Virus record (IMG/VR): IMGVR_UViG_3300029908_000017
Span: 10,377 to 74,376 of that record
Length of the DNA stretch: 64,000 nt
Reading direction: 5' to 3' (one strand)
Origin: a virus
The notes beneath the pieces were generated by a model. It was given only the letters and a program-made list of their open reading frames with translations, was not told where the DNA came from and searched no databases. This document shows positions 6,393 through 38,537 of the stretch, piece by piece. Made by a program: the position numbers and the translations under genes. Position 1 is the stretch's first letter. Every line of letters begins with the position of its first letter.

Positions 6393-6434
6393 TTTCTTCA
6401 ATTTCGAATTGTTCCTGTAATGTCATAATAAATC

Positions 6435-6459
6435 TGTCGAACGGGTTGGACGTTCGACA
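6435..6459 (-). other. Stem-loop after the putative SSB gene (mRNA stabiliser or weak terminator)
   Basis: Perfect 9-bp inverted repeat TGTCGAACG-N7-CGTTCGACA. Confidence 0.55.
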
Positions 6460-6466
6460 ATCCTAA

Positions 6467-7555
6467 TTATTTCTTAGCTTCTAGAAAAGCACGAAGATCA
6501 TCCTTATTGACGACCTTTCCACCGACAATAACCTCATTGGTTGCTGCTGGTGTTACTGAAATCACCGATGCTACAGGCGCGGGCGGGACAGGAGGATTGA
6601 ATGCTATTGCTGGGGCTACTGTTGGAGAAGCCGCAGGAGGTGCAGGAATAGTATAGGCTCCTGTATTTGTTGGTGTGGAGGCAGGTAAAGGCAGGGGTAC
6701 ACTTACAGTAGGCGCAGGAGGTGTAGGCAATGGATTAGTTGGAAAAGCTGCCACTGTTTTAAATCCTGCATAACCCTCCATACAAATATCGAAAACATTA
6801 GCTGGAAACATCTGGCGTAAGTCTCCAATAATTTCTTCTTTCATCTTTATCACAAATATTTCGTCGAGATTATAAAGATTTTCCGACAATGCGTATTGTT
6901 CGGGAATTACATATTTATAAGCAATATTTGGAGAAATCTGCCATCCCCCATCCTTACCTACATCTGAATTTAACTTTAGAAATGTTCCAATCGCTGCGTT
7001 TACATCATTAAGCAACGGACTTTGTGACCCATCAGGTTGGGGTTGGTCCATCCATTTCGTTAATTGATCTGCACCTTTGTAAGCAGGTAAGTCCAATACA
7101 TGGATTACCTCTTTTAAAGGTGCAGCGGCCTGCAACAACTTTAAAGGAGCTACATTAAAAGCAACTCGTTGTGTTACATGTCCGTAATTTGGATAAATAG
7201 TAAACTTTGTTGAATTATTTCCTTCTCCAGGTTTGACAGGTTTTGCTTGCTCTGGATACCTTGCACGAAACGCTCGTTCAAAATAACTAGCAGGATCGTC
7301 ATTTAAATTATGTACATAATAATTTTTCTTCGCCTTGTCCAGACCAAACGCCTTACGAACAGAAAATGACTTGAACCATACTCCTTCTCCATTGCTATCG
7401 GCTTTGTAAGCAGGTAAAAATAACACGTACAGTCCTTCACGGTTATTGTCCTTATCAAATACTAGTTGTTTAACATCTGTGCGAATATAATTGAATAACG
7501 ATGCTTGATCGATATTCGATCCTTCAAATTTTCGGCTTCCTTGTATAATTGGCAT
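6467..7555 (-). CDS. Putative ssDNA-binding protein (gp32-like) with Pro/Ala-rich tail
   Basis: Lies upstream of the recombinase; VLFLPAY and aromatic-rich core; low-complexity C-terminus. The assignment rests mainly on context. Confidence 0.45.
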   Translation of the reverse strand: MPIIQGSRKFEGSNIDQASLFNYIRTDVKQLVFDKDNNREGLYVLFLPAYKADSNGEGVWFKSFSVRKAFGLDKAKKNYYVHNLNDDPASYFERAFRARYPEQAKPVKPGEGNNSTKFTIYPNYGHVTQRVAFNVAPLKLLQAAAPLKEVIHVLDLPAYKGADQLTKWMDQPQPDGSQSPLLNDVNAAIGTFLKLNSDVGKDGGWQISPNIAYKYVIPEQYALSENLYNLDEIFVIKMKEEIIGDLRQMFPANVFDICMEGYAGFKTVAAFPTNPLPTPPAPTVSVPLPLPASTPTNTGAYTIPAPPAASPTVAPAIAFNPPVPPAPVASVISVTPAATNEVIVGGKVVNKDDLRAFLEAKK

Positions 7556-7562
7556 ATTTTAT

Positions 7563-7844
7563 TTATTGATTGGCTTCAAAAAGATTCTGAAACCATATAT
7601 ATTTTGGGTTTATTTTTTTACGTATGTTTAATGACTCAGCTACTTTAAAATAATTATCGTATTCAATACTTAATTTTTTTAGTGTTTTTAATTTTGGTGA
7701 TTTTTTAACTTTTTCGAATGAAACACGGTTAATATCCCATTCTTCATAGTGTAAGTCAACCTTTGAGAAAATCTTTTTTAAAGTTTTATCCAACAAAGCT
7801 TCTACGGCTCTTACATTATGCTTTGATAGATTTTTTATGTTCAC
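7563..7844 (-). CDS. Hypothetical basic protein
   Basis: 93-aa ORF translationally coupled to the ThiF gene. Confidence 0.55.
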   Translation of the reverse strand: MNIKNLSKHNVRAVEALLDKTLKKIFSKVDLHYEEWDINRVSFEKVKKSPKLKTLKKLSIEYDNYFKVAESLNIRKKINPKYIWFQNLFEANQ

Positions 7845-8449
7845 AAATGAAAGACCTTTTCCTTCGTAACAAGATTTCCTCTTACGGCCTGTAAAAACAC
7901 TTGAACCATTGCAGCACCCACAATGACAGGCATAGCATGCGAAATATTATTTTGTTTTTCATAATCAAGCAGACAACTTCCTCGTTCTGTTGAATCATCC
8001 AAATAAGAATTTCGAATGTCTGCTGGTACCTTGGAGTTGAAAATCAATCCTAGATTGGAACTACTTCGTCCATCAATCCAAAATAACTCAGGATGACTAT
8101 CACCATATTCATAAAGTTTTTTACGAATTTCCATACCATCGGGACCACTAAGGATTACATCATAATTCTTGAAATCTTTCTTTTCCATGAACCTGTCAAT
8201 TGCAGTAATGGCGTACTTGTCTTCCATCACTTTGACTTTCTTTTTACCGAGATCTTCGAATTTATAATTTTGGTGCAATAAATTCTTGTCCGTAACTGAC
8301 GCTTCATCGAAAACTGTGATTTCAGTATTCAAATAATCGAATTGCTTGCGATTATAACCAAAGTCATAAAGAAAATGAATGACCCATCCTGAAACACCAC
8401 CCGCCCCAATAATACCGATTCTTTTATAATTCAATTTTTCAATGCTCAT
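7841..8449 (-). CDS. E1/ThiF-family adenylyltransferase
   Basis: GIIGAGGVSG nucleotide loop, D-x3-V-x3-NLLHQ, DLGKKKV, D-x4-R, WIDG, and a single Cys in RGSCL. Confidence 0.88.
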   Translation of the reverse strand: MSIEKLNYKRIGIIGAGGVSGWVIHFLYDFGYNRKQFDYLNTEITVFDEASVTDKNLLHQNYKFEDLGKKKVKVMEDKYAITAIDRFMEKKDFKNYDVILSGPDGMEIRKKLYEYGDSHPELFWIDGRSSSNLGLIFNSKVPADIRNSYLDDSTERGSCLLDYEKQNNISHAMPVIVGAAMVQVFLQAVRGNLVTKEKVFHL

Positions 8450-8894
8450 TTTTTCTCCAGATTACTTCACTTTGAATTGTATCGTTGTCTAACCAAGTAT
8501 ATTTAATTATTTCTCCGTACTTAATACTCTTAATATAATTGTATTTAAAATTCTGAAATAAATTTGCATAGTCAATTCCAGAATACCTAGCAGAGAATGA
8601 TGGGTGTGTATGGAATGAACCGAATAATTGCCAACCTCTACTAAGAAATGGTCCTACTAATTTGGCGAATTCATTATCATTTGGCTCATATAAAGCGTGT
8701 CCAATACTTTGGTTATGAAACTTATTAGGAATTCTCACAAAGGCAAACACGTCGTCATCGTCAACTTTACCTTTAACGAGTAGTCCACCTGCTTCGTATT
8801 CCAAATCATTAAAGTCCGTTAAATTAATAATTGTTGTGTCAGGGCTGTCCCACACGTCCATAACATGAGGTAATTTGTTAAATTGTGAGATCAT
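8439..8894 (-). CDS. JAB/MPN+ metallopeptidase
   Basis: EAGGLL catalytic Glu plus FHTHPSFSARYSGID (HxH-x7-S-x2-D). Confidence 0.88.
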   Translation of the reverse strand: MISQFNKLPHVMDVWDSPDTTIINLTDFNDLEYEAGGLLVKGKVDDDDVFAFVRIPNKFHNQSIGHALYEPNDNEFAKLVGPFLSRGWQLFGSFHTHPSFSARYSGIDYANLFQNFKYNYIKSIKYGEIIKYTWLDNDTIQSEVIWRKNEH

Positions 8895-9447
8895 GTATTA
8901 TTGCAACGATGTTAGCATCAATAAAATCAGATTCAATATTGTTTGGTACTTTGATGTCGAAGTATTTTTCCAAATTTTCTAATAGAATATTTTTACCCAA
9001 ATTATTAAAGCTGGTCTTATCGTTGAATAATACTTCTTCAAACTGAATTATTCTTTTCAACTGATATTTTATCGATAACAACTGTAGTCGAAGATTGTAT
9101 TTATCAACATTATGCCAAATCAGTTTAGTAATATTGTGCTCATTTATTTTACTCAACAATTCTACATAAACACGTTCCTCATTATCATCAGTGATTGAAA
9201 TGCGAGACCATGTAAGTAGTCCGGTTCTTTGATCAATAATTTTTACAAAGCCTTTTACACCCTTCAACTTGGTTGTAAATGTATGGTTGCCCACGTCGGC
9301 CAACCATTTTTCTTCTTTGTCTTTGATGTCTTTTTCTTTTTTAATTGGATCAGTAAGCCTACCATCGGCTTTAAAGTCAGGTATCCATTTTAACAATTCT
9401 TCCCCTTGAAGGGGAGTAAACTCTAATTTTATAGCAGCTATACTCAT
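8878..9447 (-). CDS. Hypothetical protein, possibly a degenerate DEDD 3'-5' exonuclease fold
   Basis: IKLEFTP and LIWHNVDKYNL sit where DIETxP and LVxFNGxxFD would be; the catalytic Asp residues are missing. Confidence 0.35.
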   Translation of the reverse strand: MSIAAIKLEFTPLQGEELLKWIPDFKADGRLTDPIKKEKDIKDKEEKWLADVGNHTFTTKLKGVKGFVKIIDQRTGLLTWSRISITDDNEERVYVELLSKINEHNITKLIWHNVDKYNLRLQLLSIKYQLKRIIQFEEVLFNDKTSFNNLGKNILLENLEKYFDIKVPNNIESDFIDANIVAIIHDLTI

Positions 9448-9449
9448 AA

Positions 9450-9656
9450 TTAATCTAATTCAGTTGTTTTTTCGTATCCTCGAAGAATTGCAGTCTGTAC
9501 ATAATAATCGTAAAATCTGACAGTCTGATCCTCATATAATTGGTCTGCCACATCTAATGCATCATCTTCATTTCGCCACGCTTCTTTGACTATAATTTCA
9601 CCCTCACTATCTTCTTGCAGCACCAGATAAATATATGTTTCGTTATTTATACTCAT
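9450..9656 (-). CDS. Small acidic hypothetical protein
   Basis: 68-aa ORF with ATGA coupling. Confidence 0.55.
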   Translation of the reverse strand: MSINNETYIYLVLQEDSEGEIIVKEAWRNEDDALDVADQLYEDQTVRFYDYYVQTAILRGYEKTTELD

Positions 9657-11842
9657 GCAACGGCTACCTCTTGAATTTCTGGAATATTAGCAACTTCTTG
9701 TGCGATATCTTTTAATTCTTGATCAAGATTATCATTGATAACCGGTTCATTTGTATCTTCTACATCAACAGTTTCAAAATCCTGGTCAATAGGAGTTTCT
9801 TTGACATAATGCTTTAGGGTATAAATTTCGTCAACCAATACCGAGTCATTATGCAACGCATACAATCTAGCCGCGAGATCATCATAACCTACACCTGTAT
9901 CATGGCTTGAATTGACAATGCAAATATAACCCTGGCTAGCTTCGTCAAATACTTTGCAATTTTCTTTATTCACAATATAGGTTGTCAGCTTGCCTTTGAT
10001 ACGGTAAAACTCTTTACCATCTTTTTTGATCAACTCCGCGCCTGTAGCTTCTACAGCCATTTTTAAGAATTCTTTAGATTTCTCAACCGCTAATGCGTGC
10101 TTTAAGTCTAAATAATCAACAACCGCAATAAGATCAAAATCTGTCAAATGCTCGGTAACTACTTCTTTTTCGATTTCAACCCCATCAGCATTCTTTTCTT
10201 TAACAATCTTCTTAAAGGTAGACGCTTCTTTTAGAATTGGCTTTAATTTGCTTCTTGCCCATTTATCTGTTTTTGTCTCTCCGTTACACCAATTAGCATT
10301 TGCCGATTTATTTAAAGCATATACTTTTTTGATTAAATAATTTAATCTAACAGGTACTGTCTTCTCGATATTATCAATAGAGTTAATAACAAGATGTGGC
10401 TTTCTATCCACAATTCTAAAGAACAATTTAGTGCATTCAGGATGAGGTAAGGGATCTGCCCAACTACCAACATAATCCTTGTCAATTTTTACACCTAGTC
10501 CTGCACTAATTGCATCCGTGGCCTTTAAATTCAAGACTGAAGTTTGTTTAAGGAAATTTGTGTAATTCAACTCGTCTTGAAAACACGAACAACGATAAAT
10601 AACTTCTTCTAACTCATTGGCATTGATACGAATACCATTGATCTTACGATGACCGCTTGCCAAGTGCTTAGTCAACGTTAATGTAATTCCATTAATCTTG
10701 AACGACTCCAATGTAATTACACCATCCGTATACGCGGATTCGTCAGCAATTTCAAAAGTCTTAGGTACATTCACTTCTTCTTGGACCCTCGCGCTTCTCC
10801 TCCATCCATATCCGTACTTACGAATTTTCTTAATCTGCCGTACTTCTTTCTTTAATCCCGCACTCTCAAGTTCAGCCGCTTTGGCTTTCGCAATTTCACG
10901 GACAACTGAATAGATATCAAATTGATTATGAATATCATAAACACCCATAAATATTTCAAATAGCTTAGGATATTCGAGAGTAACAGTATGATAAACAGCC
11001 GAATTAGCTGTGAACTTAATATTGTTAAACTCACCAGATTCCACTTCACCAGACGCTAGTTTATTAGCATAGACTAATGTAGTATTAGCATTGTATTCTC
11101 CTTCAAGGACAGCTAACCGAGTTTTCCAAATAGTTTTCTGGTCTTTTGTCAGTCCCTTCTCCATCTTTAAGCGATACAATACACTCTTTTCAGGATTAAT
11201 AAAGAATCCATGATCCAACATATCTACGAATCTTGAATTAAATCGTAGAAGATGAAAAACTAATAGAATTTCATAAGTAAAAACATTTGCAACGGCGTAT
11301 TTACTAATCAATTTATTTTTCTCATGATACTGGTATACCTGAAAAAGATTATATTGATCGAGATAATCATATACTTTGTCCATGTGTGAGGCCATGAACT
11401 TGATAAACCTTCGACCATTTACAATACGATAAGTTGTACCATTTACAATTTTTTCGATAGGTGCCTGCATGATAACCAATGGCCCATCACTATCATCAAC
11501 AGATTGTCGAGTGTAATATTTTGAATTTGTGATCTTATCACGAATTGCTCCATAACTACTATCAGTTACTAACTCATAATTATCGTTGCAAAAAGAATCC
11601 TCAAAATCATTGTCAGGCCAATTTGAGGTACCGCGAATTGCTTGATAATTTAATTTAAACAACGAATGTAGCGTAGGTAAATTTTCTATATAAAAATCCT
11701 GTACTTTAAAATAGAAATTAATATCCTTGTTCTGTTCTTCCCAAGCCAATTCAAAATCTATTTTAACCTTCTTTAACTTTAATAATAGATTTTTTAATTT
11801 TACCAAATATTGTTTATTTAACTGCGAGTGATAAAATGCCAT
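9653..11842 (-). CDS. 729-aa protein of unknown function in the Ubl cassette
   Basis: Long ORF with a C-terminal RIKGKLTTYIV...YICIV...DDLAARLYALHND segment. Confidence 0.8.
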   Translation of the reverse strand: MAFYHSQLNKQYLVKLKNLLLKLKKVKIDFELAWEEQNKDINFYFKVQDFYIENLPTLHSLFKLNYQAIRGTSNWPDNDFEDSFCNDNYELVTDSSYGAIRDKITNSKYYTRQSVDDSDGPLVIMQAPIEKIVNGTTYRIVNGRRFIKFMASHMDKVYDYLDQYNLFQVYQYHEKNKLISKYAVANVFTYEILLVFHLLRFNSRFVDMLDHGFFINPEKSVLYRLKMEKGLTKDQKTIWKTRLAVLEGEYNANTTLVYANKLASGEVESGEFNNIKFTANSAVYHTVTLEYPKLFEIFMGVYDIHNQFDIYSVVREIAKAKAAELESAGLKKEVRQIKKIRKYGYGWRRSARVQEEVNVPKTFEIADESAYTDGVITLESFKINGITLTLTKHLASGHRKINGIRINANELEEVIYRCSCFQDELNYTNFLKQTSVLNLKATDAISAGLGVKIDKDYVGSWADPLPHPECTKLFFRIVDRKPHLVINSIDNIEKTVPVRLNYLIKKVYALNKSANANWCNGETKTDKWARSKLKPILKEASTFKKIVKEKNADGVEIEKEVVTEHLTDFDLIAVVDYLDLKHALAVEKSKEFLKMAVEATGAELIKKDGKEFYRIKGKLTTYIVNKENCKVFDEASQGYICIVNSSHDTGVGYDDLAARLYALHNDSVLVDEIYTLKHYVKETPIDQDFETVDVEDTNEPVINDNLDQELKDIAQEVANIPEIQEVAVA

Positions 11843-11874
11843 AAAAAAGCCCGTTGGTGTTTAATCCAACGGGC
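11843..11874 (-). terminator. Intrinsic terminator/attenuator after the Ubl gene
   Basis: GCCCGTTGG-N8-CCAACGGGC followed by T6 on the minus strand, abutting the next ATG. Confidence 0.8.
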
Positions 11875-11893
11875 ATCTCCGTTTATTGATTAA

Positions 11894-12247
11894 TTAACCA
11901 CCGATGACTCGTCCAACGATTTGTACAGGAGGAGTAATGAATTTACCTGGAAAGGCAATATCTACTTTTGTCAGAGAAGACAGCAAATCACGTAACCGTA
12001 ACTTATCGCTTTCAATAATCTTGTTATCGTCATCCGTACCATTAAACTTAGCAGATGTCTTAAAGATTCCATCGTTAATCACAGCCCAAAGCTTGTTGGT
12101 CTGGAAATGACTAAAGATACGTTCAACGGCTCCTTCTAAGTTTAGTTTAAAAGTTTCATGTCCGGCTTTACCAGTAACATGCAAATCGTAAACAGGTGCG
12201 TTCAAATCTAAAGCTACTTCTGCAATTGTATTTTTGATTTCTTCCAT
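11894..12247 (-). CDS. Divergent ubiquitin-like (beta-grasp) protein with C-terminal diglycine
   Basis: 117 aa ending in the strand-like VQIVGRVIGG*; lies upstream of the JAB and E1 genes. Confidence 0.7.
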   Translation of the reverse strand: MEEIKNTIAEVALDLNAPVYDLHVTGKAGHETFKLNLEGAVERIFSHFQTNKLWAVINDGIFKTSAKFNGTDDDNKIIESDKLRLRDLLSSLTKVDIAFPGKFITPPVQIVGRVIGG

Positions 12248-12249
12248 AA

Positions 12250-12768
12250 TTAAACAGTTTGGGCTACCTCGTGATCTTCGTTGATAGCCAAAGAGAATCC
12301 AGACAAATCCTCGCTAGCGTTATTTAGATTCAATCTTGAATTAAACGTAATTTTTGCACCGGATTTCTGCAGAATCTTTACCAACGAGGCAAGAAAGAAA
12401 CGAGGATGAGTAAGCTGCTTTACTCGTACTTCTGCCTTTACCTCGTAACCCTCGCTAATATTAACTACTAGCTCTTTGGGAGCTTCTACAGGTTGATTAT
12501 CAACGACTACTTGAATTGGCTGTTTTGAATTTGCCTTTGTTTTAGTAGCAGTACCTTTCTTTGATTTTGCAGTTGTTGGTTTTGCAGTTGTAGTAGATTT
12601 AACAACATTCTTATCCGCTCCCTCTACTTCAAGGGTAGCCCAATTCTTGGAAATATTATTCGCATAAGTTGAGGAATAACCTTTCTTGATCAAATACGCA
12701 GACACACCTTTCTTCTGCCGCTTGATCTTCAATAATTCGTCGTAAAGTGCTTTTTTAATTTTAGCCAT
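12250..12768 (-). CDS. Lys/Thr-rich hypothetical protein (possibly DNA-binding)
   Basis: Basic N-terminus and a low-complexity linker rich in K, T and A. Confidence 0.6.
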   Translation of the reverse strand: MAKIKKALYDELLKIKRQKKGVSAYLIKKGYSSTYANNISKNWATLEVEGADKNVVKSTTTAKPTTAKSKKGTATKTKANSKQPIQVVVDNQPVEAPKELVVNISEGYEVKAEVRVKQLTHPRFFLASLVKILQKSGAKITFNSRLNLNNASEDLSGFSLAINEDHEVAQTV

Positions 12769-13037
12769 AATAGTTTAGTAAGTTTTCTTGTATGCTGCGA
12801 GTGTCTTTTCGATATTTTGCTGTGAATAACCCTGAAGAAGTAGATAAGACCGTAGACCCTTTTTTGCGAGACGTACTTTATCCAATTCTTTAACTAACGT
12901 TTTATTTATTTTCATATGTTTATTTCTATTCTGTTACTACTACTGCCATGCACTTCAATCCCAAAAAGCTACCCAATAACAAAAGCGCAATTGCTGAAAT
13001 TGTTTTTAGGGCTTTGATGGTTATCAGTACATAATCT

Positions 13038-16000
13038 TTAAACTCCATCATATTCTTTAATTATTTTTTGTGAATAATCTTCTTTGTATTTGTTTATTAT
13101 ATTATTTATTTCTTCAGAATTTACGATCTCGGGTGTATCAAAATCCTTGAAATACTTGTCTAACTCTTGTTTACTACCTATTTCTTCCAAGTTGTCCTGA
13201 TCAACGATTATACATTTCACTGGGGAATCTGAATAAAGATATGAGACACATCCTCCAACCACTTCAATTATAATTGTAGGTATCTTATTGTTCATTATAG
13301 CAATCTTCTTGATAAGGTGTATCAGCCACTATCTCATATTCCCAATCTGGATTATTTTGATTGGCAACCCAATTTTCCAATGTTTCTAATGCTCCTGAAT
13401 TGTCTTCTAAAAAACTAATTATCGCCCGTTCACCACTACAATCATCGGTATAACCAATCGTTTTTAATAGATCTTCGAACCTTACCAACCCAATCATTCC
13501 TTCATAACAAGGCCCAATATCATTAGCTTCTTTCCATCTTTGAATGACTTGTGGATTCATACTAAATGGGAGAGCGTCTCAGGGCTTACCCAAGTATAGC
13601 TATATGGGTCAGATGTATTCTCAGATGACGTTATTTTAATAAGCATCTCCCTTGCGGAGGTTAGGCTTATTGCCAATATCTTAAATGTATTTGGAGATTT
13701 TCCCCAATGTACGATATCTCCAACTTCAAAAGTACGTTTATTAATAGGTACAACTTCATAAATTGGTTCGGCAGGAGGAATCACCTTTACAAAATGAGTA
13801 GCTGCAAGAATGACAAAATTTGCATTTGGAAATTTTTTAGCCAATCGTAAACCTTCAGTTTCTGCTTCTTCAAATGTAGAGTGACGAACACGAGGAAGTG
13901 TAACAACATCTTGAGGATTTGTTCGTGGTTGATACCTCATCACATACCAAAATTTATCGATTTTATCGACTTTCATAATTAAACACCAATAGGTATAAGA
14001 GGTACCGGAGCGAATTGATCAACTGCGTAAAGGTCATTCAATTGATTATCCGATAGCTTGGCAGGAGGAAGGTCTAAATGATTATTGATTTTCGCCACTG
14101 AAATTTCTTCAATTGGAGTAGTTACTTCTTGTGGGGTTAAATCTTCATCAATAACCACTGTAATATTTTCGTCCTCCACTTTCCGGCTTACTACAGTCTT
14201 AGGATTTTTAATGTTCTTCAGACTATTGAAAAGCCAAGAGATTTTATGCCCAACATTACGAAAATTATGCTGCTTGATTTCAGGCAACAATAATTCAATA
14301 TCTTCATACCATGTTGAATCTTCGTCGTCATTACGAATTTCTGCCTGCCAATTGATCAGTTCATCTTCATCGGTGTTTGATATACTATTGGCAATCTTGA
14401 TCGTTGTTTCTTCAAACAAATCATTTAATGCCTGATAATAAAACTCTTCTGACCGACCTTCCGGACGACCTGCGTTTTCCCAATAGTAATAAGCTCGAAC
14501 TTCTACTACTTGTGATTCAATTTCAATATATGTGTTCAAGGCAATGCCTTTTTCGATTTTCATGTATTTTCTTTCTTTATGTTTGCTAACTCTTTTTCTA
14601 ATGCGAGAATCTTGTCTTCTCGACTCTTGTTGTACCAACTACCAATACTCTCTGCTTCTTTTAACTGGTCCTTCAGATCATCAATATCTTCAAGTTGTTC
14701 AAAGATATTTCCTGCTCCGATATGTGTAATACGCATACCGTGTGTGATCTTTTTATTCTTATGGGCTTTCCAAACCCAATCAGCCTTTGGTAAATCTTTC
14801 TTTTCCGGAATGACCGCTACAATGGTTATTGTTTTAGGGTAGGGCATATCTCAAATTCAAAAGGTTGAACTTTGACATCTTCACATTCCTCATCAAAACG
14901 TTCAATAAAAGTTGTTGCTTCATTAGGTAGTTGAATAATCTCTTTGATCTCCTCTTCTTTCATAAGAGTTATACAGAGTCTACCTACATATATACGATAA
15001 TTCGGGAGTTCTCGGCTTGTTGCTAATGAAATAGGACAAAAATAACCTTTGTTAGGTCGCCCCAATTCAATATCTTGTTTAGTTACACGTATTTTCATAA
15101 CATTGCGTAATCATGGTTACTAACGTATGCATCAATAATACTCTCTGCTTCTTTGAAGACATAACCAAATTCATCATGTTGAGCGTGTTCAGGATAGAAT
15201 CCATAACAAGAATCAATAATCTCATCTTCTTCATTGTGTATTTCAAATCCACAAACATTACCCCGTAAATAATCATCGTAAATTTGAACTTCGTATTCTA
15301 ATACCTCCAAAATTTGCTGCTTCAATGATTTTCCGAAATTAACGGTTATTGCTTCCCAACCTTCTTCTTTATTAGTTACCGTAAATTCTTGTAGTGCCTT
15401 TTCCAATGTACAGTAAATGAATCCAACTTGCCCACTATCCCAAGGACAAGAAAAACCACATGTATTAATAGACAAACCGGAATGATCCATCAAATACAAT
15501 GGTAATATAACAATATTTTCTTTAAGTATTGTTTCGGCTTTCTCAGTTGGTGTTTCTTCGTCAATATCACATAGGTTGTAGAAGTATTCTTGAAAACTTG
15601 AATTCTTTAATTGCTCATCCCCTAAATTATAATTACGATGACTGCATACCATTTTACCAAGATTACACCAATCTCTAGGAGATTCTGGGCAATCATCACT
15701 CACCAATTTAATTTTATAATCTTTATAATCTCTTTCTTCAACCACGTAATTATTCATTTAATTTTTGGATTAATCTCTTAAGTCCTGCTATAAACTTATC
15801 CGCCACATAGGCAGAAATACATCTACCCTGAATATGATAACTTGTAGCATGGTGTTTCACCAGATCACCTCGATAATCATCGCCTTTGTGATGATCTTGT
15901 TCAACTTTATAAGTGTTACACAACACACCTGTTAATACACAATATTCAGATTTATCTGTATCGTCTTTATGTTGATAAGGTAATAACTGTACAAACTCTT

Positions 16001-22912: not shown

Positions 22913-23460
22913 AATCTTGATAAGTCGAACTTTTTTTCTTTAAGAAAATGTAACAACGCTTCATCGATTGGAAATACCTTTGACTTATATTTATCGATTA
23001 CTTCTTGTACAGGTTCTTTGGTGATTAGAATACGAAACCAATTTTTCAGATTTACATAATCCTTCATTAACGCCTGTTCAACTGTAAGGCCAGATTGTAT
23101 CAGATTACGTAGATAGGATAATTGTGTTTGGTATAAATCTTCGTAAGCAATGGGTGTTTCATTAATGCAATTCTTTTGTACATATTCTCTATATTTACTC
23201 TCTGCATATTGGGTATGAAGAAATGAAGATTGAAAATGATCAATGTTCTTAATATTATTAAACTGAGCTTTGACGAACAATACAGGATCAGCATCAATAC
23301 GGTAGCAAATTTCTGCCGCTTTTTCAAACGCAGTAATATCTTTACTACCGTATTTATACCAGGGTAATAACTTTCTGGCTTCTTCCTTAAAAGATTCGGC
23401 AATACTTTCTTTTAATCCATTAAAAACATGAATATCCATTATTGCGGAATAGTTGGACAA
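22906..23460 (-). CDS. Hypothetical replication-associated protein
   Basis: Overlaps the helicase start; context only. Confidence 0.55.
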   Translation of the reverse strand: MSNYSAIMDIHVFNGLKESIAESFKEEARKLLPWYKYGSKDITAFEKAAEICYRIDADPVLFVKAQFNNIKNIDHFQSSFLHTQYAESKYREYVQKNCINETPIAYEDLYQTQLSYLRNLIQSGLTVEQALMKDYVNLKNWFRILITKEPVQEVIDKYKSKVFPIDEALLHFLKEKKFDLSRLC

Positions 23461-24131
23461 TCTGAATAATTAGGATTATGAATTAGTGGATTTACCTCAC
23501 CAAAAGATAATTCTGCTTTAGTTACAACCGGTACTGTATAAAACTCGTAATTTGTATCTAGCTTAACAATCATGTTATGTCCAATTGCTTGATCAGGTTG
23601 TTTATCAAAACTTCTTTGATAAATAATATGGTCTTTCTTATCATCAGGTAGCTTATCCCTTAATACACTATCCCATATAAATATGTCATTATGTTCATAT
23701 TTTTTACCATCAATAAAATAACTAAATTTGCTTTCATGTTTAGTTTCAATAACTTCCAAATTTTCTTTCTTTACTACTTCTTCAAAAGTAATAGGGTCTA
23801 GTATCTTTGGAACCGAAGACTGTTCAATAATCGGTTCATCCACAACCTTCGCTACTTGCCCTTCTTTGATATCTGAAGCTGCGATATATATGATTGTATT
23901 ATTCGATGAACAATTTTTCAGTTCATTCAACAATCGGTTATTTTCTTTGATAAGTTCATAAATAATAATACTTAGTTCAATTCCAGTAAGCCCTTTTTGT
24001 TTTACCAGGTTTTTAGCATTCCGGTAAATGAAATGATTATTAACGGCCCATTTATGGAAGTTATCTAGGTCATCATAAATTTCATAATCTGGTTTGTCTA
24101 GATTGATACTTGGAAATTCTGGTTCGTTCAT
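23439..24131 (-). CDS. Protein with a C-terminal multiubiquitin-like beta-grasp domain
   Basis: FSYFIDGKKYE...LR...IYQ...PDQAI...VKL...EFYTVP pattern. Confidence 0.6.
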   Translation of the reverse strand: MNEPEFPSINLDKPDYEIYDDLDNFHKWAVNNHFIYRNAKNLVKQKGLTGIELSIIIYELIKENNRLLNELKNCSSNNTIIYIAASDIKEGQVAKVVDEPIIEQSSVPKILDPITFEEVVKKENLEVIETKHESKFSYFIDGKKYEHNDIFIWDSVLRDKLPDDKKDHIIYQRSFDKQPDQAIGHNMIVKLDTNYEFYTVPVVTKAELSFGEVNPLIHNPNYSDCPTIPQ

Positions 24132-33851: not shown

Positions 33852-34964
33852 TTATATTTCCAATGCTCGAAGATATTCTCCAGTAATTGAAGATATATCT
33901 GAAGTATTTTCAGCTACAGTTTTAACATCTAACAAGAATTCTTTTAAAGCATTTCGGTCATCGACATTATCTTTACTTTTCAGATCTCGGTTTTCTGCAA
34001 GAAACGTCTGTACTTCTGTGATACGTTCTTCTAACACTTTGTCACCAAAGATATTCAATTTTTCAAAATCTTGTATCTTTTTTAACAACGTGTTCTTATT
34101 AACATCAGAAACAACGTCGCCTTTATTAATTTTATTAATAATTACAGCAAAAACACTATTTACACTTTCACGCAATTCTTTGATTGAGTTATCGACAAAA
34201 TTGGTAATTTGTTCCAACTGTTTTGCAGCTTGTTGGTTATAATGTTCCTTGGCTTCGTTAACAGTGGCAGCAACTTGAGCTTCTTCTTCCAATAATACCC
34301 GAATATTAACCTCTTGTAGCTCGTTAGGCATATTAATACGGAATTCGGAATATTCGAAATTAAACTTTCCACGTATCTCATTTACTGATGGGTATGCCGG
34401 TCGTAGAACATCTGCATATTCTGGATAAGCCGCAAGTGCTTCTGTTTTATATTGCTCGTAATTCTCTACAAACGAATCAACAAGAATATTAAATTCTTCC
34501 TTATAGGTCTCTAATTGTTTACGTACCTCTTCCAGATTATGAAAAGCTACAAAATGTGCTTCCGCAATAGGAAAGCGATTACTCATTCGCTTAAGATACA
34601 ATCTAGCACGTTGTTCAATTTGAGCAAATTGATTAAACAATACTGGTTTAACCAGCATCTTTTTGCCAAGTTTAATAATATCTGGGACTTTTTCAATTTC
34701 CAGGTCCGATTCTTTTAATGAAGTAGACATACTCCACCTTGAAATATGAATAGATATTAGTACACCTGTACTAAACAACTTATCATAGTAACGATCAAGA
34801 ACTCGGATTTGATTGTGATTTTCCAATTCCTCAACTAATTGTTGCCCTCGTTGGTTTACAGGGGTGTCCAGAACCTCTGTAACACTTATTGATTCTTCCG
34901 ATTGTTCCAATATATCAATATTAGAATCCACTAACTCTTCGATAACTTTCTTATGTCTTCCCAT
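33852..34964 (-). CDS. DUF3150-like helical protein
   Basis: GVLISIHISRW, LGKKMLV, YPS..EIRGKFNF and long helices; ends RALEI. Confidence 0.6.
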   Translation of the reverse strand: MGRHKKVIEELVDSNIDILEQSEESISVTEVLDTPVNQRGQQLVEELENHNQIRVLDRYYDKLFSTGVLISIHISRWSMSTSLKESDLEIEKVPDIIKLGKKMLVKPVLFNQFAQIEQRARLYLKRMSNRFPIAEAHFVAFHNLEEVRKQLETYKEEFNILVDSFVENYEQYKTEALAAYPEYADVLRPAYPSVNEIRGKFNFEYSEFRINMPNELQEVNIRVLLEEEAQVAATVNEAKEHYNQQAAKQLEQITNFVDNSIKELRESVNSVFAVIINKINKGDVVSDVNKNTLLKKIQDFEKLNIFGDKVLEERITEVQTFLAENRDLKSKDNVDDRNALKEFLLDVKTVAENTSDISSITGEYLRALEI

Positions 34965-34966
34965 AT

Positions 34967-36535
34967 TTATTTAACCTCAATTAATTCACCTTTGTTATTC
35001 AATGTATACCAAGTATTAGCTTTAATACCATCTTCTCCTGCATAACCGACAACTATACGATTACGGTTACCGTCATCCCAAACCAAAGATAAGCAACCAT
35101 TTTCTCCGACTTTTGTTTTTCCATACAATCCTGCCACAACTGCAATAGTATCTTTACCAACAGCTGCTGCTGTGCTGTAATATCCTGAACTCGCTGCTTT
35201 GCTGGAATTACCTGAACTCTCTGCTTTGCTGTAATCTCCTGAACTCGCTGCTGTGCTGTAATCTCCTGAACTCGCTGCTGTGCTGGAATCTCCTGAACTC
35301 GCTGCTTTGCTGTAATCTCCTGAACTCGCTGCTGTGCTGTAATCTCCTGAACTCGCTGCTTTGCTGGAATTACCTGAACTCACTGCTGTGCTGGAATCTC
35401 CTGAACTCGCTGCTTTGCTGGAATCTCCTGAACTCGCTGTTTTGCTGTAATATCCTGAACTCACTGCTTTGCTGGAATATCCTGAACTCGCTGCTTTGCT
35501 GTAATCTCCTGAACTCGCTGTTTTGCTGGAATTACCTGAACTCACTGCTTTGCTGTAATCTCCTGAACTCGCTGCTGTGCTGGAATTACCTGAACTCGCT
35601 GCTTTGCTGTAATCTCCTGAACTCGCTGCTGTGCTGTAATATCCTGAACTCGCTGCTTTGCTGTAATCTCCTGAACTCGCTGTTTTGCTGGAATCTCCTG
35701 AACTCGCTGCTGTGCTGGAATTACCTGAACTCACTGCTTTGCTGTAATCTCCTGAACTCGCTGCTGTGCTGGAATTACCTGAACTCGCTGCTTTGCTGTA
35801 ATCTCCTGAACTCGCTGCTTTGCTGTAATCTCCTGAACTCGCTGCTTTGCTGTAATCTCCTGAACTCGCTGCTGTGCTGGAATCTCCTGAACTCGCTGCT
35901 GTGCTGGAATCTCCTGAACTCGCTGTTTTGCTGGAATCTCCTGAACTCGCTGCTGTGCTGGAATTACCTGAACTCACTGCTTTGCTGTAATCTCCTGAAC
36001 TCGCTGCTTTGCTGTAATCTCCTGAACTCGCTGCTGTGCTGTAATATCCTGAACTCGCTGCTTTGCTGTAATCTCCTGAACTCGCTGTTTTGCTGGAATC
36101 AAGTTTTTTAACTTTTAAAATTAAATCGTTAACCTGTTTATCAATTTTTGTTTTATTGCAAAACAAGCGAGCAATTAATTCTGGTGTTGCGTCGTTTAAT
36201 TCCCAAACTTTATTCAATACATCTGAATACTGTGGTTCGGAAAAATAATCTAAGGCTACCTCCTTACCCTTTAAAGCGTTCATTAAACTTGTATAATGTG
36301 ACGTAATGGAAGAAACTTGGTGTTGTGTTAATGTAGAAATATCATCGTTCTTAACAACATTTTCCAAAACGAAATCACCAATCCCATTCCATTCGCATTC
36401 AACAAATCTTTTTTGTTTATGAACACTATCGTTTTCTGTCCATTTAAACAATTCAACAGCCTTACTATGGCTATTACCAGGTTCATGGGCTATAACTCCA
36501 TCACGTCTAACAACAATACTATGAAAATCACACAT
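34967..36535 (-). CDS. Repeat protein with 34 nine-residue SSGDYSKAA-type repeats (start probably MCDFHS)
   Basis: In-frame 27-nt repeats; C-terminal cap GEDGIKANTWYTL typical of phage repeat proteins. Confidence 0.85.
   Translation of the reverse strand: MCDFHSIVVRRDGVIAHEPGNSHSKAVELFKWTENDSVHKQKRFVECEWNGIGDFVLENVVKNDDISTLTQHQVSSITSHYTSLMNALKGKEVALDYFSEPQYSDVLNKVWELNDATPELIARLFCNKTKIDKQVNDLILKVKKLDSSKTASSGDYSKAASSGYYSTAASSGDYSKAASSGDYSKAVSSGNSSTAASSGDSSKTASSGDSSTAASSGDSSTAASSGDYSKAASSGDYSKAASSGDYSKAASSGNSSTAASSGDYSKAVSSGNSSTAASSGDSSKTASSGDYSKAASSGYYSTAASSGDYSKAASSGNSSTAASSGDYSKAVSSGNSSKTASSGDYSKAASSGYSSKAVSSGYYSKTASSGDSSKAASSGDSSTAVSSGNSSKAASSGDYSTAASSGDYSKAASSGDSSTAASSGDYSTAASSGDYSKAESSGNSSKAASSGYYSTAAAVGKDTIAVVAGLYGKTKVGENGCLSLVWDDGNRNRIVVGYAGEDGIKANTWYTLNNKGELIEVK
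35166..36100 (-). repeat. 27-nt coding tandem repeat, about 34-35 copies
   Basis: Consensus AGTTCAGGAGATTACAGCAAAGCAGCG; 34 SSG units counted in the translation. Confidence 0.97.
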
Positions 36536-36941
36536 AATTTTAATATTCCAATTCAATAACTATTTCACCACTAGGTCTTGTCCATTCCAGATTACTGTAC
36601 CTAACCAAATTTGCGCAGCGATATTCAATTTCAGCTTCTCTCGCTACGAATACAACGTCTTTATCAAGTATATCTTTGCGATTTTCCAATATTTGAATTA
36701 TTAATTCTCTATAAGTCATAATTTTATAGATCAATATCTTTTTTAAAATCGTAAACAATAACATTGTCAGGTAATGATTCTTCCTGAAAATAACCTACTT
36801 CTATCAATGTATGCTGTGCTTTTTGCAGTACACGTGATTCTACATTTGTAGGATCTTTCACCTTTAAAACTAATGTATAGATATCAAACAAAGCATATAG
36901 CATTTCTGAATATTCACGACTTCTCAATTTTTCAAAATAAC

Positions 36942-38537
36942 TCATATCTCCATACTTCTTAAAATAGTTTCCGAGTTTTCAATAATTTCACCATCTTTTC
37001 CAGCAATTTGTAACTTACCTTTTGCGGAATCTCTCATACTTTTTAAACGTTCTGGATACATCTCAGCGTTAGGCTTGAATCTTTTAATCTCTGCTAACAA
37101 ATCTTCTTCTAATACTTCTCGGCTATCATGATAGAAAGCACGAAACAAAGCAGATTTGATTAGTTCTTCAATCTCCGAGCCAATATAATTGTTTGTTAAT
37201 TTAGCTAATTTTTTTAAACTAAACTTTTCAGGATCACGATTATATTTTATCAATAGCTTTTTAAATATATCCTCACGTTCTTCTAAATCAGGCAGGTCTA
37301 CCCAAAAAGCAGCATCGAATCGACCCGGACGTAATAAGGCAGGAGGTAGAATTAAATGATTGTTACAGGTACCGATAAAGAATGGTGCAGAATCATTCCC
37401 ACGATCTGCCAAATACGTCAGAAACGCTCCAAGCATTCGTGAGCCTACACCCGAATCACCAATACCCGATGTAGCGTTTGAACTCAATGACTTTTCAATT
37501 TCATCAATCAAAACCACACATTTGCCTATCGATTCAATGGTCTGTAAGACTTGTCGTAAGTTGCGTTCAGAATCTCCTACATGAGAAGAAAACAACTTCC
37601 CAATATCCAATAAAAATAAAGGTACTTTAAATTCTGTAGAAATAGCACGAGCGGTAATGCTCTTACCACCACCAGGAATACCACAAAGAATTATACCACG
37701 AGGAGTACAAAGACCATATTCTTTTGCTTCTTTACTAAATGCCCGTTTTCTAAGATTGACCCAATTCTTTAGACCTTCAAATCCACCAATATTATCAAAA
37801 CTAATGCCCGTTTCAATGTATTCTAATAAACTATTCTTTTTAATTTGAGTTATCTTTTCATTAAAAACAATCTTTATAAACTCGTCATTGAACTCACCCT
37901 TCGTACAAACAAAGGCAAAGGCCAAAGCAGACTCTACTTCGTTATTAGCCATACCTTTACAGGCTTCAATAACGTTCTCAATAAAATCTTCGTCTAATTT
38001 TGCTTCTGGTTTATTTTTGGCTTTTCTAGAAACGTTGGCACTGATTAATGTGTCATTAAACTTTTCACGTATTGCTTTTTTATCAGGTAACTCATATTCC
38101 ACTATCTGAATTTCCTTTTCTAACTCCAAAGGGATATTGAAATTTGGAGAAATAAAAATCAAGGTGTTGCCATCTCTTCGTAAATAACTACTGAGATTAC
38201 GTAAACACCGAATATAATCTTTTGATTTCATCTTACTATCCATCTCTAGATGGAAGTCAAGAAGAACGTAAGCACTTCGTTTTTCGTTACGGCCTGCTGA
38301 GTTAAGAAGAAATTCAAATAACTTATTTGGGTCATCCGTACCTTTAATTATATTGCCGTCTTTATTCAAGTCTACTAAACCAGTAATACAATCCCAGCGA
38401 TAAAAGGTGCCGAACTTCTCACGTTTAGGCAATATCGTTAGTAGGTCATTGGTAACACGTTTTTCTTCATGTGTATTGATTACCAGCATTGGATAACTGG
38501 CTTTTGCGTAATTTAATATTTTATCGTTAAAATTCAT
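36942..38537 (-). CDS. Ycf46-like AAA+ ATPase
   Basis: Degenerate N-terminal AAA (THEEKR, LLDFH), IGGFEGLKNW, GIPGGGKS, IDEIEK and LLRPGRFD. Confidence 0.9.
   Translation of the reverse strand: MNFNDKILNYAKASYPMLVINTHEEKRVTNDLLTILPKREKFGTFYRWDCITGLVDLNKDGNIIKGTDDPNKLFEFLLNSAGRNEKRSAYVLLDFHLEMDSKMKSKDYIRCLRNLSSYLRRDGNTLIFISPNFNIPLELEKEIQIVEYELPDKKAIREKFNDTLISANVSRKAKNKPEAKLDEDFIENVIEACKGMANNEVESALAFAFVCTKGEFNDEFIKIVFNEKITQIKKNSLLEYIETGISFDNIGGFEGLKNWVNLRKRAFSKEAKEYGLCTPRGIILCGIPGGGKSITARAISTEFKVPLFLLDIGKLFSSHVGDSERNLRQVLQTIESIGKCVVLIDEIEKSLSSNATSGIGDSGVGSRMLGAFLTYLADRGNDSAPFFIGTCNNHLILPPALLRPGRFDAAFWVDLPDLEEREDIFKKLLIKYNRDPEKFSLKKLAKLTNNYIGSEIEELIKSALFRAFYHDSREVLEEDLLAEIKRFKPNAEMYPERLKSMRDSAKGKLQIAGKDGEIIENSETILRSMEI

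Follow-up and report, generated by a model that had tools for sequence, protein, structure and literature searches.

What would a bacteriophage do with a ubiquitin-like tagging system of its own, and does the locus described here encode one? The window, a 64,000-nucleotide stretch of DNA corresponding to bases 10377-74376 of the 74,376-bp IMG/VR virus record IMGVR_UViG_3300029908_000017, carries at positions 7841-12247 a run of genes that includes a 117-amino-acid (aa) protein ending in Gly-Gly, a 729-aa protein, a JAB peptidase, and an E1/ThiF-type adenylating enzyme. A preliminary description of the window, made from its letters and a list of its open reading frames (ORFs), read this run as a phage-encoded cassette for the conjugation of a ubiquitin-like protein (Ubl). 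As far as we know, bacterial Ubl conjugation has been shown so far only for host defence systems, namely Cap2 of the cyclic-oligonucleotide-based antiphage signaling systems (CBASS), Bil, and Bub, and our literature search turned up nothing about the use that a phage would make of such a system. On balance we think it probable that the locus is a phage-borne, strongly diverged Ubl protein conjugation cassette like those of the plasmid PRTRC (ParB-Related, ThiF-Related Cassette) or “type 6d” loci, and that it serves for reversible tagging. The evidence for this proposal, and the alternatives to it, are as follows.

The virus record is a fragment, about 36% complete by CheckV, so that about 64% of the genome is unseen. 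It is AT-rich, and the minus strand holds nearly all of its genes, including every feature of the window to which coordinates are given in this text. Pfam and PHROG matches define a tailed-phage replication and recombination block with PolA and UDG, a DnaB-like helicase, SbcCD, a UvsX/RecA-like recombinase, a Holliday-junction resolvase, a dCMP deaminase, and an AAA ATPase with a DUF3150 protein; they also identify virion genes in the record, for baseplate J and an Ig-like domain. Four further peat-metagenome runs have contigs in which the cassette DNA is identical, so that they offer no population variation on which selection could be judged. In all, 23 listed peat runs contain some or all of it, and eight of these contain at least half of its words. 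Given this recurrence, the source is a real, recurrent, uncultured peat phage.

All of the ORFs named in the preliminary description (the 117-aa protein ending in VIGG, the 729-aa protein, two small ORFs, an intact JAB, and an overlapping E1) are present at the positions assigned to them. In the direction of transcription, the run consists of a 172-aa ORF (12250-12768), the Ubl (11894-12247), the 729-aa protein (9653-11842), a 68-aa acidic ORF (9450-9656), a 189-aa protein (8878-9447), the JAB (8439-8894), and the E1 (7841-8449), which is followed by a 93-aa ORF (7563-7844). Adjacent genes overlap by 4 nucleotides (nt) between the 729-aa and 68-aa ORFs, by 17 nt between the 189-aa ORF and the JAB, by 11 nt between the JAB and the E1, and by 4 nt between the E1 and the 93-aa ORF; the cassette genes are thus predicted to be translationally coupled. 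The whole region is a single long co-directional block of short, overlapping, early-type genes. To find an E1 and a JAB that both score above curated thresholds beside a protein with an invariant Gly-Gly end would, judging from the sequences, be far beyond chance.

The 151-aa protein scores 31.5 bits against Pfam Prok-JAB (cut-off 25), and its JAMM motif, as read from the sequence, is complete: E34, H95-x-H97, and S105-x2-D108. It also matches PDB 2kks (E 1e-4), AfJAMM, and the JAB models of PADLOC. The 202-aa protein scores 36.9 bits against Pfam ThiF (PF00899; cut-off 28.1), and ThiF is its top NCBIfam match as well (E 4e-6). As first described, this minimal E1 adenylation domain has one Cys, C159 in the motif RGSC, and contains no CxxC. 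Both enzymes look intact. Weak matches of the two in PADLOC-DB, of the JAB to JAB models and of the E1 to E1-E2 models (E 3.5e-5 to 1e-4), cover shared cores only; these models we take to be those of CBASS Cap3 and Cap2.

The E1 is the component that points most directly to PRTRC. When the E1 was compared by tblastn with 72,556 plasmids, 14 of the 18 matches carried the annotation “PRTRC system ThiF family protein”, and coverage reached as much as 92%. Residues common to the aligned E1 and PRTRC ThiFs are GAGG (GxGG), D48, N56, Q60, K71, D104, and R109. Beyond the general E1 core, the proteins share W124-x-D126-x-G and a Cys loop, PSCS in PRTRC ThiF and RGSC in the window E1, that is followed by a conserved Gln. 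A profile made from the E1 and the PRTRC ThiFs matches the adenylation domains of UBA3, ThiF, TcdA, Uba1, UBA5, and Cap2, with E values from 6e-9 to 1e-5. The window E1 is some 55-65 aa shorter than the PRTRC ThiFs compared. By these features the E1 appears nearest to the PRTRC-type ThiF, and the comparison with PRTRC-type loci that the preliminary description had drawn is an apt one.

The 117-aa protein, which is translated already mature with the end RVIGG, has no Pfam, NCBIfam, PHROG, or PADLOC family match. Two relatives were found by a word-indexed search, and an exhaustive hidden Markov model (HMM) search of 1.84 billion representatives found six further true members, so that the protein appears to found a new family of nine. 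The preliminary description had named conservation of the C-terminal Gly-Gly among homologs as a check, and it is invariant in all nine. What follows the Gly-Gly is unconserved: nothing in this phage, and K, NS, RS, LDL, KIIVNLLS, or tails of about 60-85 residues in the relatives. An invariant Gly-Gly with variable tails reads as the pattern classically seen where a peptidase exposes a C-terminus for subsequent activation. The Ubls of type II BilA show the same pattern and are trimmed by their JAB (Chambers et al., PMC10557695).

An AlphaFold2 model of the Ubl, built on the nine sequences, has a mean predicted local distance difference test (pLDDT) value of 73.8. It shows the order strand-strand-helix-strand-strand, a long inserted helix, a final strand, and a free tail, that is, β-β-α-β-β-α-β. 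The best rows of the searches with this model (Foldseek against the PDB, an exhaustive VIA search, and BFVD) are almost all β-grasp proteins, with weak scores; they include ubiquitin, SUMO, ISG15, FAT10, PB1, UBX, MoaD, and the bacterial Ubl 8tyz_B. The β-grasp fold that the preliminary description had asked about is therefore suggested by the topology and by the identity of the top matches, and less so by their scores; on this modelled structure, the 117-aa protein likely has a β-grasp fold.

The preliminary description also held that, as the Ubl already ends in Gly-Gly, the JAB would act as a deconjugase. That reading is reasonable and yet weaker than was stated, since a tail follows the Gly-Gly in eight of the nine family members. 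Because of these tails, maturation of the Ubl would be the ancestral job of the JAB and its first task across the family. Among the nine, only the Ubl of this phage is made ready without a tail, and for this phage we infer a deconjugase role.

The two genes upstream of the Ubl are tied to the system by a shared small domain. The stop codon of the 172-aa ORF lies 2 nt ahead of the Ubl start codon. Its product, in which a Lys/Thr-rich linker joins a small domain at the N-terminus to a domain at the C-terminus, has no family match in Pfam, NCBIfam, PHROG, PADLOC, or a further search. Its position is that of PRTRC protein E, the gene ahead of PRTRC_C in the plasmid loci. Further upstream, a 46-aa ORF (12775-12915) shares 45% identity, in an alignment of 42 aa, with residues 3-44 of the 172-aa ORF and thus appears to be a paralog of its N-terminus. 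The 46-aa ORF is also 38% identical to residues 158-194 of the Ubl homolog P0011, and this segment is the tail, a small basic domain, that is fused behind the Gly-Gly of P0011. In other words, the domain that follows the Gly-Gly in P0011 is encoded twice upstream of the Ubl here, as the 46-aa ORF and as the N-terminus of the 172-aa ORF. Because the domain is common to the tail and to these ORFs, we take it to tie both upstream genes to the system, in an arrangement that recalls ubiquitin-fusion precursors.

How would an activated Ubl reach its target? The 729-aa protein has no Pfam, PHROG, or PADLOC family above threshold, and only two homologs, P0001 and P0002, were found among 5.8 billion proteins, with 45-46% identity. 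Both of these are on contigs equal in size to the contig of a Ubl homolog (6,769 bp for P0001 and the Ubl homolog P0005, 64,933 bp for P0002 and the Ubl homolog P0008), and from the equal sizes we infer that the 729-aa homologs and the Ubl homologs are on the same contigs. The last conserved domain, residues 556-690, gives a sub-threshold match to Pfam DUF7737 in each of the three homologs (best E 0.0069); the three have no other family in common. The literature on DUF4132 held nothing functional.

An AlphaFold2 model of residues 556-690 (9773-10177), built on the three sequences, has a pLDDT of 64.9. It consists of a long helix, four strands, a loop with the invariant Cys641, and then two helices; six residues after Cys641, between strand 4 and helix 2, stands the invariant His647. 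As a lead, we note that this order of elements would be that of the UBC fold, with Cys641 where E2s carry theirs. A fold scan that is independent of Foldseek, exhaustive (VIA-wide) over 48,161 chains, placed at its top the Vps23 UEV domain (Z 5.3), Citrobacter BubCD (5.2), and the Tsg101 UEV domain (5.0). RWD domains, FANCL, UBE2E1, Ubc8, residues 10-152 of Cap2, Ubc13, Ubc9, and CdnG-E2 are found lower in the list, which spans Z 3.4-5.3, and chains of the UBC superfamily make up more than half of the top 50. We therefore propose residues 556-690 as a candidate E2/UBC-like domain, an assignment that we hold to be just short of an even call. If it is right, the 729-aa protein would be the “large protein” and the “E2” of PRTRC merged in one chain; its 729 aa fit the sizes of these two proteins in the plasmid loci, 338-455 aa and 204-249 aa.

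Searches for a conventional E2 were negative. Pfam Prok-E2_A to Prok-E2_E and UQ_con do not match any cassette protein (E<=0.1), and Prok-E2_D has no match anywhere in the 74-kb record (E<=10); the plasmid proteins used as controls do match Prok_Ub and Prok-E2_D. The statement in the preliminary description that no E2 is recognisable thus holds for E2 families, whereas the C-terminal domain of the 729-aa protein, with its invariant Cys, is a plausible E2/UBC-like domain. The two small ORFs noted between the 729-aa gene and the JAB both exist. The 68-aa ORF has no family match in Pfam, NCBIfam, PHROG, PADLOC, or a further search. The 189-aa protein was considered as an E2 and rejected, for it has no Cys, and its ESM Atlas model (predicted TM-score 0.67) is an RNase-H/PolB-exonuclease fold that matches clusters with DNA_pol_B_exo2/RNase_H_2 members, with TM-scores of 0.73 and 0.68; sequence searches, Pfam and PHROG among them, gave no match to it. 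Its first motif is K-L-E, conserved in the only homolog, P0007, at a position where we presume the PolB-exonuclease family to have D-x-E. The 189-aa protein is probably an inactive exonuclease fold, as far as its motifs tell, and probably stands outside the tagging chemistry.

It is tempting to go one step further and to see in the 729-aa protein a single-chain “scaffold plus E2”, in which a DUF7737-related new branch of UBC/E2 domains is loaded by the minimal E1 while the N-terminal 550 or so residues pick the target. We think this extension unlikely as it stands. Were it true, the widespread bacterial DUF4132/DUF7737 proteins would likewise carry an E2-like module, and the Ubls with a basic domain fused to their Gly-Gly would act like ubiquitin-fusion precursors, released by the phage JAB.

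The mechanism that we propose for the cassette is as follows. The E1 would adenylate the C-terminal Gly of the Ubl, possibly with transfer of the Ubl onto Cys159. The Ubl would then pass to Cys641 in the C-terminal, E2/UBC-like domain of the 729-aa protein, the N-terminal part of which, about 550 aa, would select or hold the target, and would finally be joined to a target protein. In the relatives, the JAB would cut the tail behind the Gly-Gly. Since the Ubl of this phage needs no such cut, the JAB would here mainly remove the tag, and tagging would be reversible. An excess of tag over enzymes would be allowed by a hairpin and U-tract after the Ubl gene. This hairpin (11849-11874), with a 9-bp stem that includes 7 GC pairs (ΔG -20.6 kcal/mol, z -3.66), starts 19 nt after the Ubl stop; a U6 tract runs into the ATG of the 729-aa gene, and the stem has a GGAG on its 5′ side. 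The hairpin would be a partial terminator, by which the tag would be made more abundant than the enzymes, and it may also bring the Shine-Dalgarno sequence beside the start codon.

Several points weigh against this interpretation. For the 729-aa protein, the model of residues 556-690 is built on a shallow alignment of three sequences; its Z scores (<=5.3) are in the range that the tool calls “common” and may arise by chance; Foldseek finds frataxin-like chains (E 0.2) and no E2s; and hhalign gives no link of the protein to Prok-E2_D/PRTRC_B or to the large PRTRC protein (probability <=0.14%). Synteny of the homologs is read from equal contig sizes only. For the Ubl, the fold scores are weak (Foldseek E 0.07-0.4, VIA Z <=5.5), and the model is drawn from a shallow alignment of nine sequences. 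In the E1, His59 stands in place of the Arg of NLxRQ. The score against PRTRC_ThiF (TIGR03736) is 24.7 bits, with a cut-off of 144.75, and all PRTRC-specific HMMs are below cut-off. Prok_Ub and Prok-E2_D do not match the cassette proteins (E<=0.1), and there is no ParB_N or HTH_ParB among the Pfam matches of the cassette proteins and 59 other ORFs of the 74-kb fragment record. A gene with an exonuclease fold sits inside the run, where adjacency alone is no proof of a single function. Finally, our literature search found no experimental work on any PRTRC-type system or on phage-encoded Ubl conjugation.

These points bear first on the E2. Could the Ubl be attached to proteins with no E2 at all? 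Conjugation with an E1 and a JAMM peptidase only is established for SAMP/UbaA/HvJAMM1. By analogy, the E1 of the phage would by itself activate and transfer the Ubl, as UbaA does with SAMPs and TtuC with TtuB, and the 729-aa protein would be the dedicated substrate, an adaptor, or an unrelated replication protein, with no carrier function in its C-terminal Cys domain. The record holds no recognised E2 family, and the E2-like call comes from scores of Z<=5.3 on a model with a pLDDT of 65, with Foldseek and hhalign unsupportive. Moreover, the E1 keeps a Cys at the Cys-loop position of the PRTRC ThiFs. The archaeal desampylase does appear in the NCBIfam scan of the cassette, as a weak match. In contrast, the Cys641/His647 pair is invariant, with the Cys at the E2 position, and over half of the top 50 of the fold scan belong to the UBC superfamily; and in the PRTRC/6d relatives an E2-like protein is always placed between the large protein and the ThiF (PMC1779556). 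Of the alternatives, E2-independent tagging survives best, and we nevertheless judge it improbable.

A second alternative takes the Ubl for a sulfur carrier. Its Gly-Gly end, adenylated by the E1, would be converted to a thiocarboxylate for the thiolation of a nucleotide, tRNA, DNA, or cofactor. The gene for the acceptor enzyme would lie in the host or in the 64% or so of the phage genome that is unseen, and the JAB would serve only in maturation or recycling of the carrier, a role that Mec+ has with CysO. ThiF as the top NCBIfam match of the E1 (E 4e-6) and MoaD among the fold matches of the Ubl (5mpo_B, Z 4.0) are in keeping with such a role, as is a gene of the PAPS-reductase family downstream of ThiF in two PRTRC plasmid loci, and an acceptor has room to lie elsewhere in a genome of which the record holds only about 36%. 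The PAPS-reductase fold is used by sulfur transferases of the TtuA and DndC types. Pfam scans covered 59 further ORFs, namely those of at least 120 aa in the window together with a selection from the extra 10 kb (100 aa or more), and no ThiG, MoaE, rhodanese, cysteine desulfurase, cysteine-synthase, PAPS-reductase, or PP-loop family was found among them. The absence of sulfur-acceptor enzymes noted in the preliminary description therefore extends to all scanned ORFs of the 74-kb record, itself about 36% complete. The E1, for its part, has neither a rhodanese domain nor the CxxC zinc site that is typical of MoeB and ThiF. At 117 aa, an inserted helix included, the Ubl is large, and its relatives are fused to C-terminal domains of 60-85 aa; these features fit a protein modifier better than a ThiS or MoaD. 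A sulfur carrier thus seems to us distinctly unlikely.

Less likely again is a decoy for counter-defence, an idea that the preliminary description had raised, in which the JAB would take apart the conjugates of host type II CBASS (Cap2/Cap3) or Bil, and the Ubl and E1 would tie up the enzymes of these systems. It would account for the retention of a JAB in a phage with a Ubl that needs no trimming, it suits the position of the cassette within an early-type gene block, and the PADLOC matches of the JAB and E1 (E 3.5e-5 to 1e-4) could be taken in its favour. Those matches are, however, far weaker than the general Pfam matches and reflect shared core folds only. A co-evolving Ubl family of its own, together with a 729-aa homolog that is probably on the same contig, argues instead for a self-contained pathway, and we give the decoy little weight. 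That there is no single system, and that an E1/JAB pair with some other substrate lies among unrelated early neighbours (the Gly-Gly protein, the 729-aa protein, and the small ORFs), seems very improbable to us: adjacency does mean little in a long co-directional block of short, overlapping genes, an unrelated exonuclease-fold gene is found mid-run, and a terminator-like hairpin parts the Ubl gene from the rest, yet the invariant Gly-Gly with variable tails has the look of a processed and activated C-terminus, the record's only peptidase and adenylating enzyme of the kind are encoded 3 kb downstream of the Ubl gene, and the gene order matches PRTRC/6d.

If the locus is a conjugation cassette, as we favour, where does its transcription end? 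The next terminator-like hairpin after that behind the Ubl gene is at 6434-6460. It has a 10-bp stem, begins 7 nt past the stop of the 362-aa gene (6467-7555), and is the probable 3′ end of the transcription unit. Because terminator-like hairpins follow the Ubl gene and the 362-aa gene, the downstream unit would comprise the genes for the 729-aa, 68-aa, and 189-aa proteins, the JAB, the E1, and the 93-aa and 362-aa proteins. No family match to the 93-aa ORF was found in Pfam, NCBIfam, PHROG, PADLOC, or a further search. The preliminary description had placed the cassette just upstream of SSB (single-stranded-DNA-binding protein), RecA, and resolvase genes. The UvsX/RecA-like recombinase and the Holliday-junction resolvase (phrog_1770, E 4e-5) stand; the SSB label, which had been attached to the 362-aa ORF, does not, as this protein has no Pfam, PHROG, or PDB match. 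The links to regulation of replication and recombination, or to counter-defence, that had been drawn from this placement are guesses. It contains a Pro/Ala/Thr-rich region, and its end reads ...NEVIVGGKVVNKDDLRAFLEAKK, which contains VIVGG. The VIVGG resembles the RVIGG of the Ubl; it could mark a second JAB substrate or be a coincidence.

Elsewhere in the window, about 25 kb from the cassette, a classic AAA ATPase (Pfam AAA, E 8e-26) is encoded together with the DUF3150 protein (33852-38537). That an unfoldase from this pair acts on tagged proteins is pure speculation. A second ubiquitin fold, a “multiubiquitin-like” domain at 23439-24131, was considered and dropped, since the Multi_ubiq HMM has no match in the record (E<=10) and there is no PHROG match.

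Related loci were sought beyond the window. Searches of viral, metagenome, and genome contigs with the 729-aa protein, the E1, the Ubl homologs, and alignments found none, and the plasmids have no match to the 729-aa protein or to a Ubl homolog. By blastn and tblastn, GenBank phages have a single match, to Acinetobacter phage ME3, in the N-terminal third of its ThiF. In this culturable jumbo phage (vB_AbaM_ME3, 129615-143848), a “PRTRC system protein A” is annotated, and a 350-aa ThiF is followed by 72-aa and 549-aa proteins with no assigned function. The resemblance of the ME3 ThiF to the window E1 is confined to that N-terminal third, and the ME3 neighbourhood is otherwise unlike the cassette.

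What, then, does the cassette contribute? The PRTRC/6d class was predicted in 2006 (Iyer et al., PMC1779556). To this class the phage would add a new Ubl family with a textbook processed Gly-Gly end, an E1 that at 202 aa and with one Cys is the smallest of the group, and a candidate E2 domain fused to a large partner. The set is compact, and its Ubl, E1, and 729-aa protein, with or without the JAB, could show whether protein conjugation takes place at all in systems of the PRTRC type. The source, an uncultured phage from peat with no known host, limits the weight of the locus.

It remains to compare the cassette with the systems that are known. Canonical type II CBASS differs, as the Pfam scans found no CD-NTase family and the E1 is a single domain and not an E1-E2 fusion. 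The likeness to BilABCD lies in a Ubl in which unconserved residues, trimmed off by the JAB, come after a conserved Gly (PMC10557695), in the catalytic Cys of the Bil E2 with its conserved downstream His (PMC10557695), to be compared with Cys641/His647, and in the bacterial Ubl 8tyz_B among the fold matches of the window Ubl. Unlike the single 202-aa domain found here, however, the Bil E1 is multidomain, with inactive and active adenylation domains and a CYS domain; no PADLOC Bil model is matched, and Bil is a host defence system and not a phage gene set.

Archaeal SAMP/UbaA/HvJAMM1 and Thermus TtuB/TtuC, which combine E1-only conjugation with sulfur transfer, resemble the cassette in having a small E1 of the ThiF type, a protein that ends in Gly-Gly (of β-grasp fold there, and likely so here), a JAMM peptidase, and no canonical E2. 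E1s of the UbaA/TtuC type carry CxxC zinc sites and/or rhodanese domains, and they partner sulfur-acceptor enzymes. The window E1, in contrast, has neither CxxC nor rhodanese, and no sulfur-acceptor is encoded among the scanned ORFs.

The closest comparison is with PRTRC (NCBIfam TIGR03734-03742), which is found on plasmids and integrative and conjugative elements; the loci compared were those of Pseudomonas antarctica pP27494_1 and Alteromonas macleodii pTE101a. In the canonical loci, genes for ParB, protein E, and protein C (the Prok_Ub protein) are followed by those for a large uncharacterised protein, for protein B (Prok-E2_D, in which a Cys is conserved), and for ThiF. In these same two loci, a gene of the PAPS-reductase family lies 1-5 kb downstream of the PRTRC ThiF (at 7078-8196 of the P. 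antarctica locus and 12650-13663 of the A. macleodii locus), a hint of a possible connection between PRTRC and the chemistry of sulfur or nucleotides. PRTRC corresponds to operon type 6d of Iyer, Burroughs and Aravind (2006; PMC1779556), which comprises a Ubl, “a novel alpha-helical protein”, an E2-like protein, a JAB, and an E1 (PMC1779556). The E2-like protein of this type has a conserved Cys and, C-terminal to it, a conserved His.

Several differences separate the phage cassette from these loci. Its Ubl has 117 aa, an inserted helix, and a Gly-Gly end, whereas PRTRC_C has about 70 aa and ends in ..G-x-K-G. The large protein has 729 aa as against 338-455 aa, with no detectable homology. There is no stand-alone Prok-E2_D, and the exonuclease-fold gene and the 68-aa gene are inserted in the run. 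The likenesses are those of organization. The order small protein, Ubl, large protein, (E2), ThiF is the same, a JAB is present as in type 6d, and the genes for Ubl, JAB, and E1 are together on a mobile element, as they are in that operon type. As in PRTRC, this element places them amid genes for replication, partition, or recombination. Apart from the E1, no component appears similar in sequence to PRTRC; the logic would be the same. The interpretation given in the preliminary description thus seems to be largely right, supported in part, and the system is best placed as a far-diverged cassette of the PRTRC/6d type.

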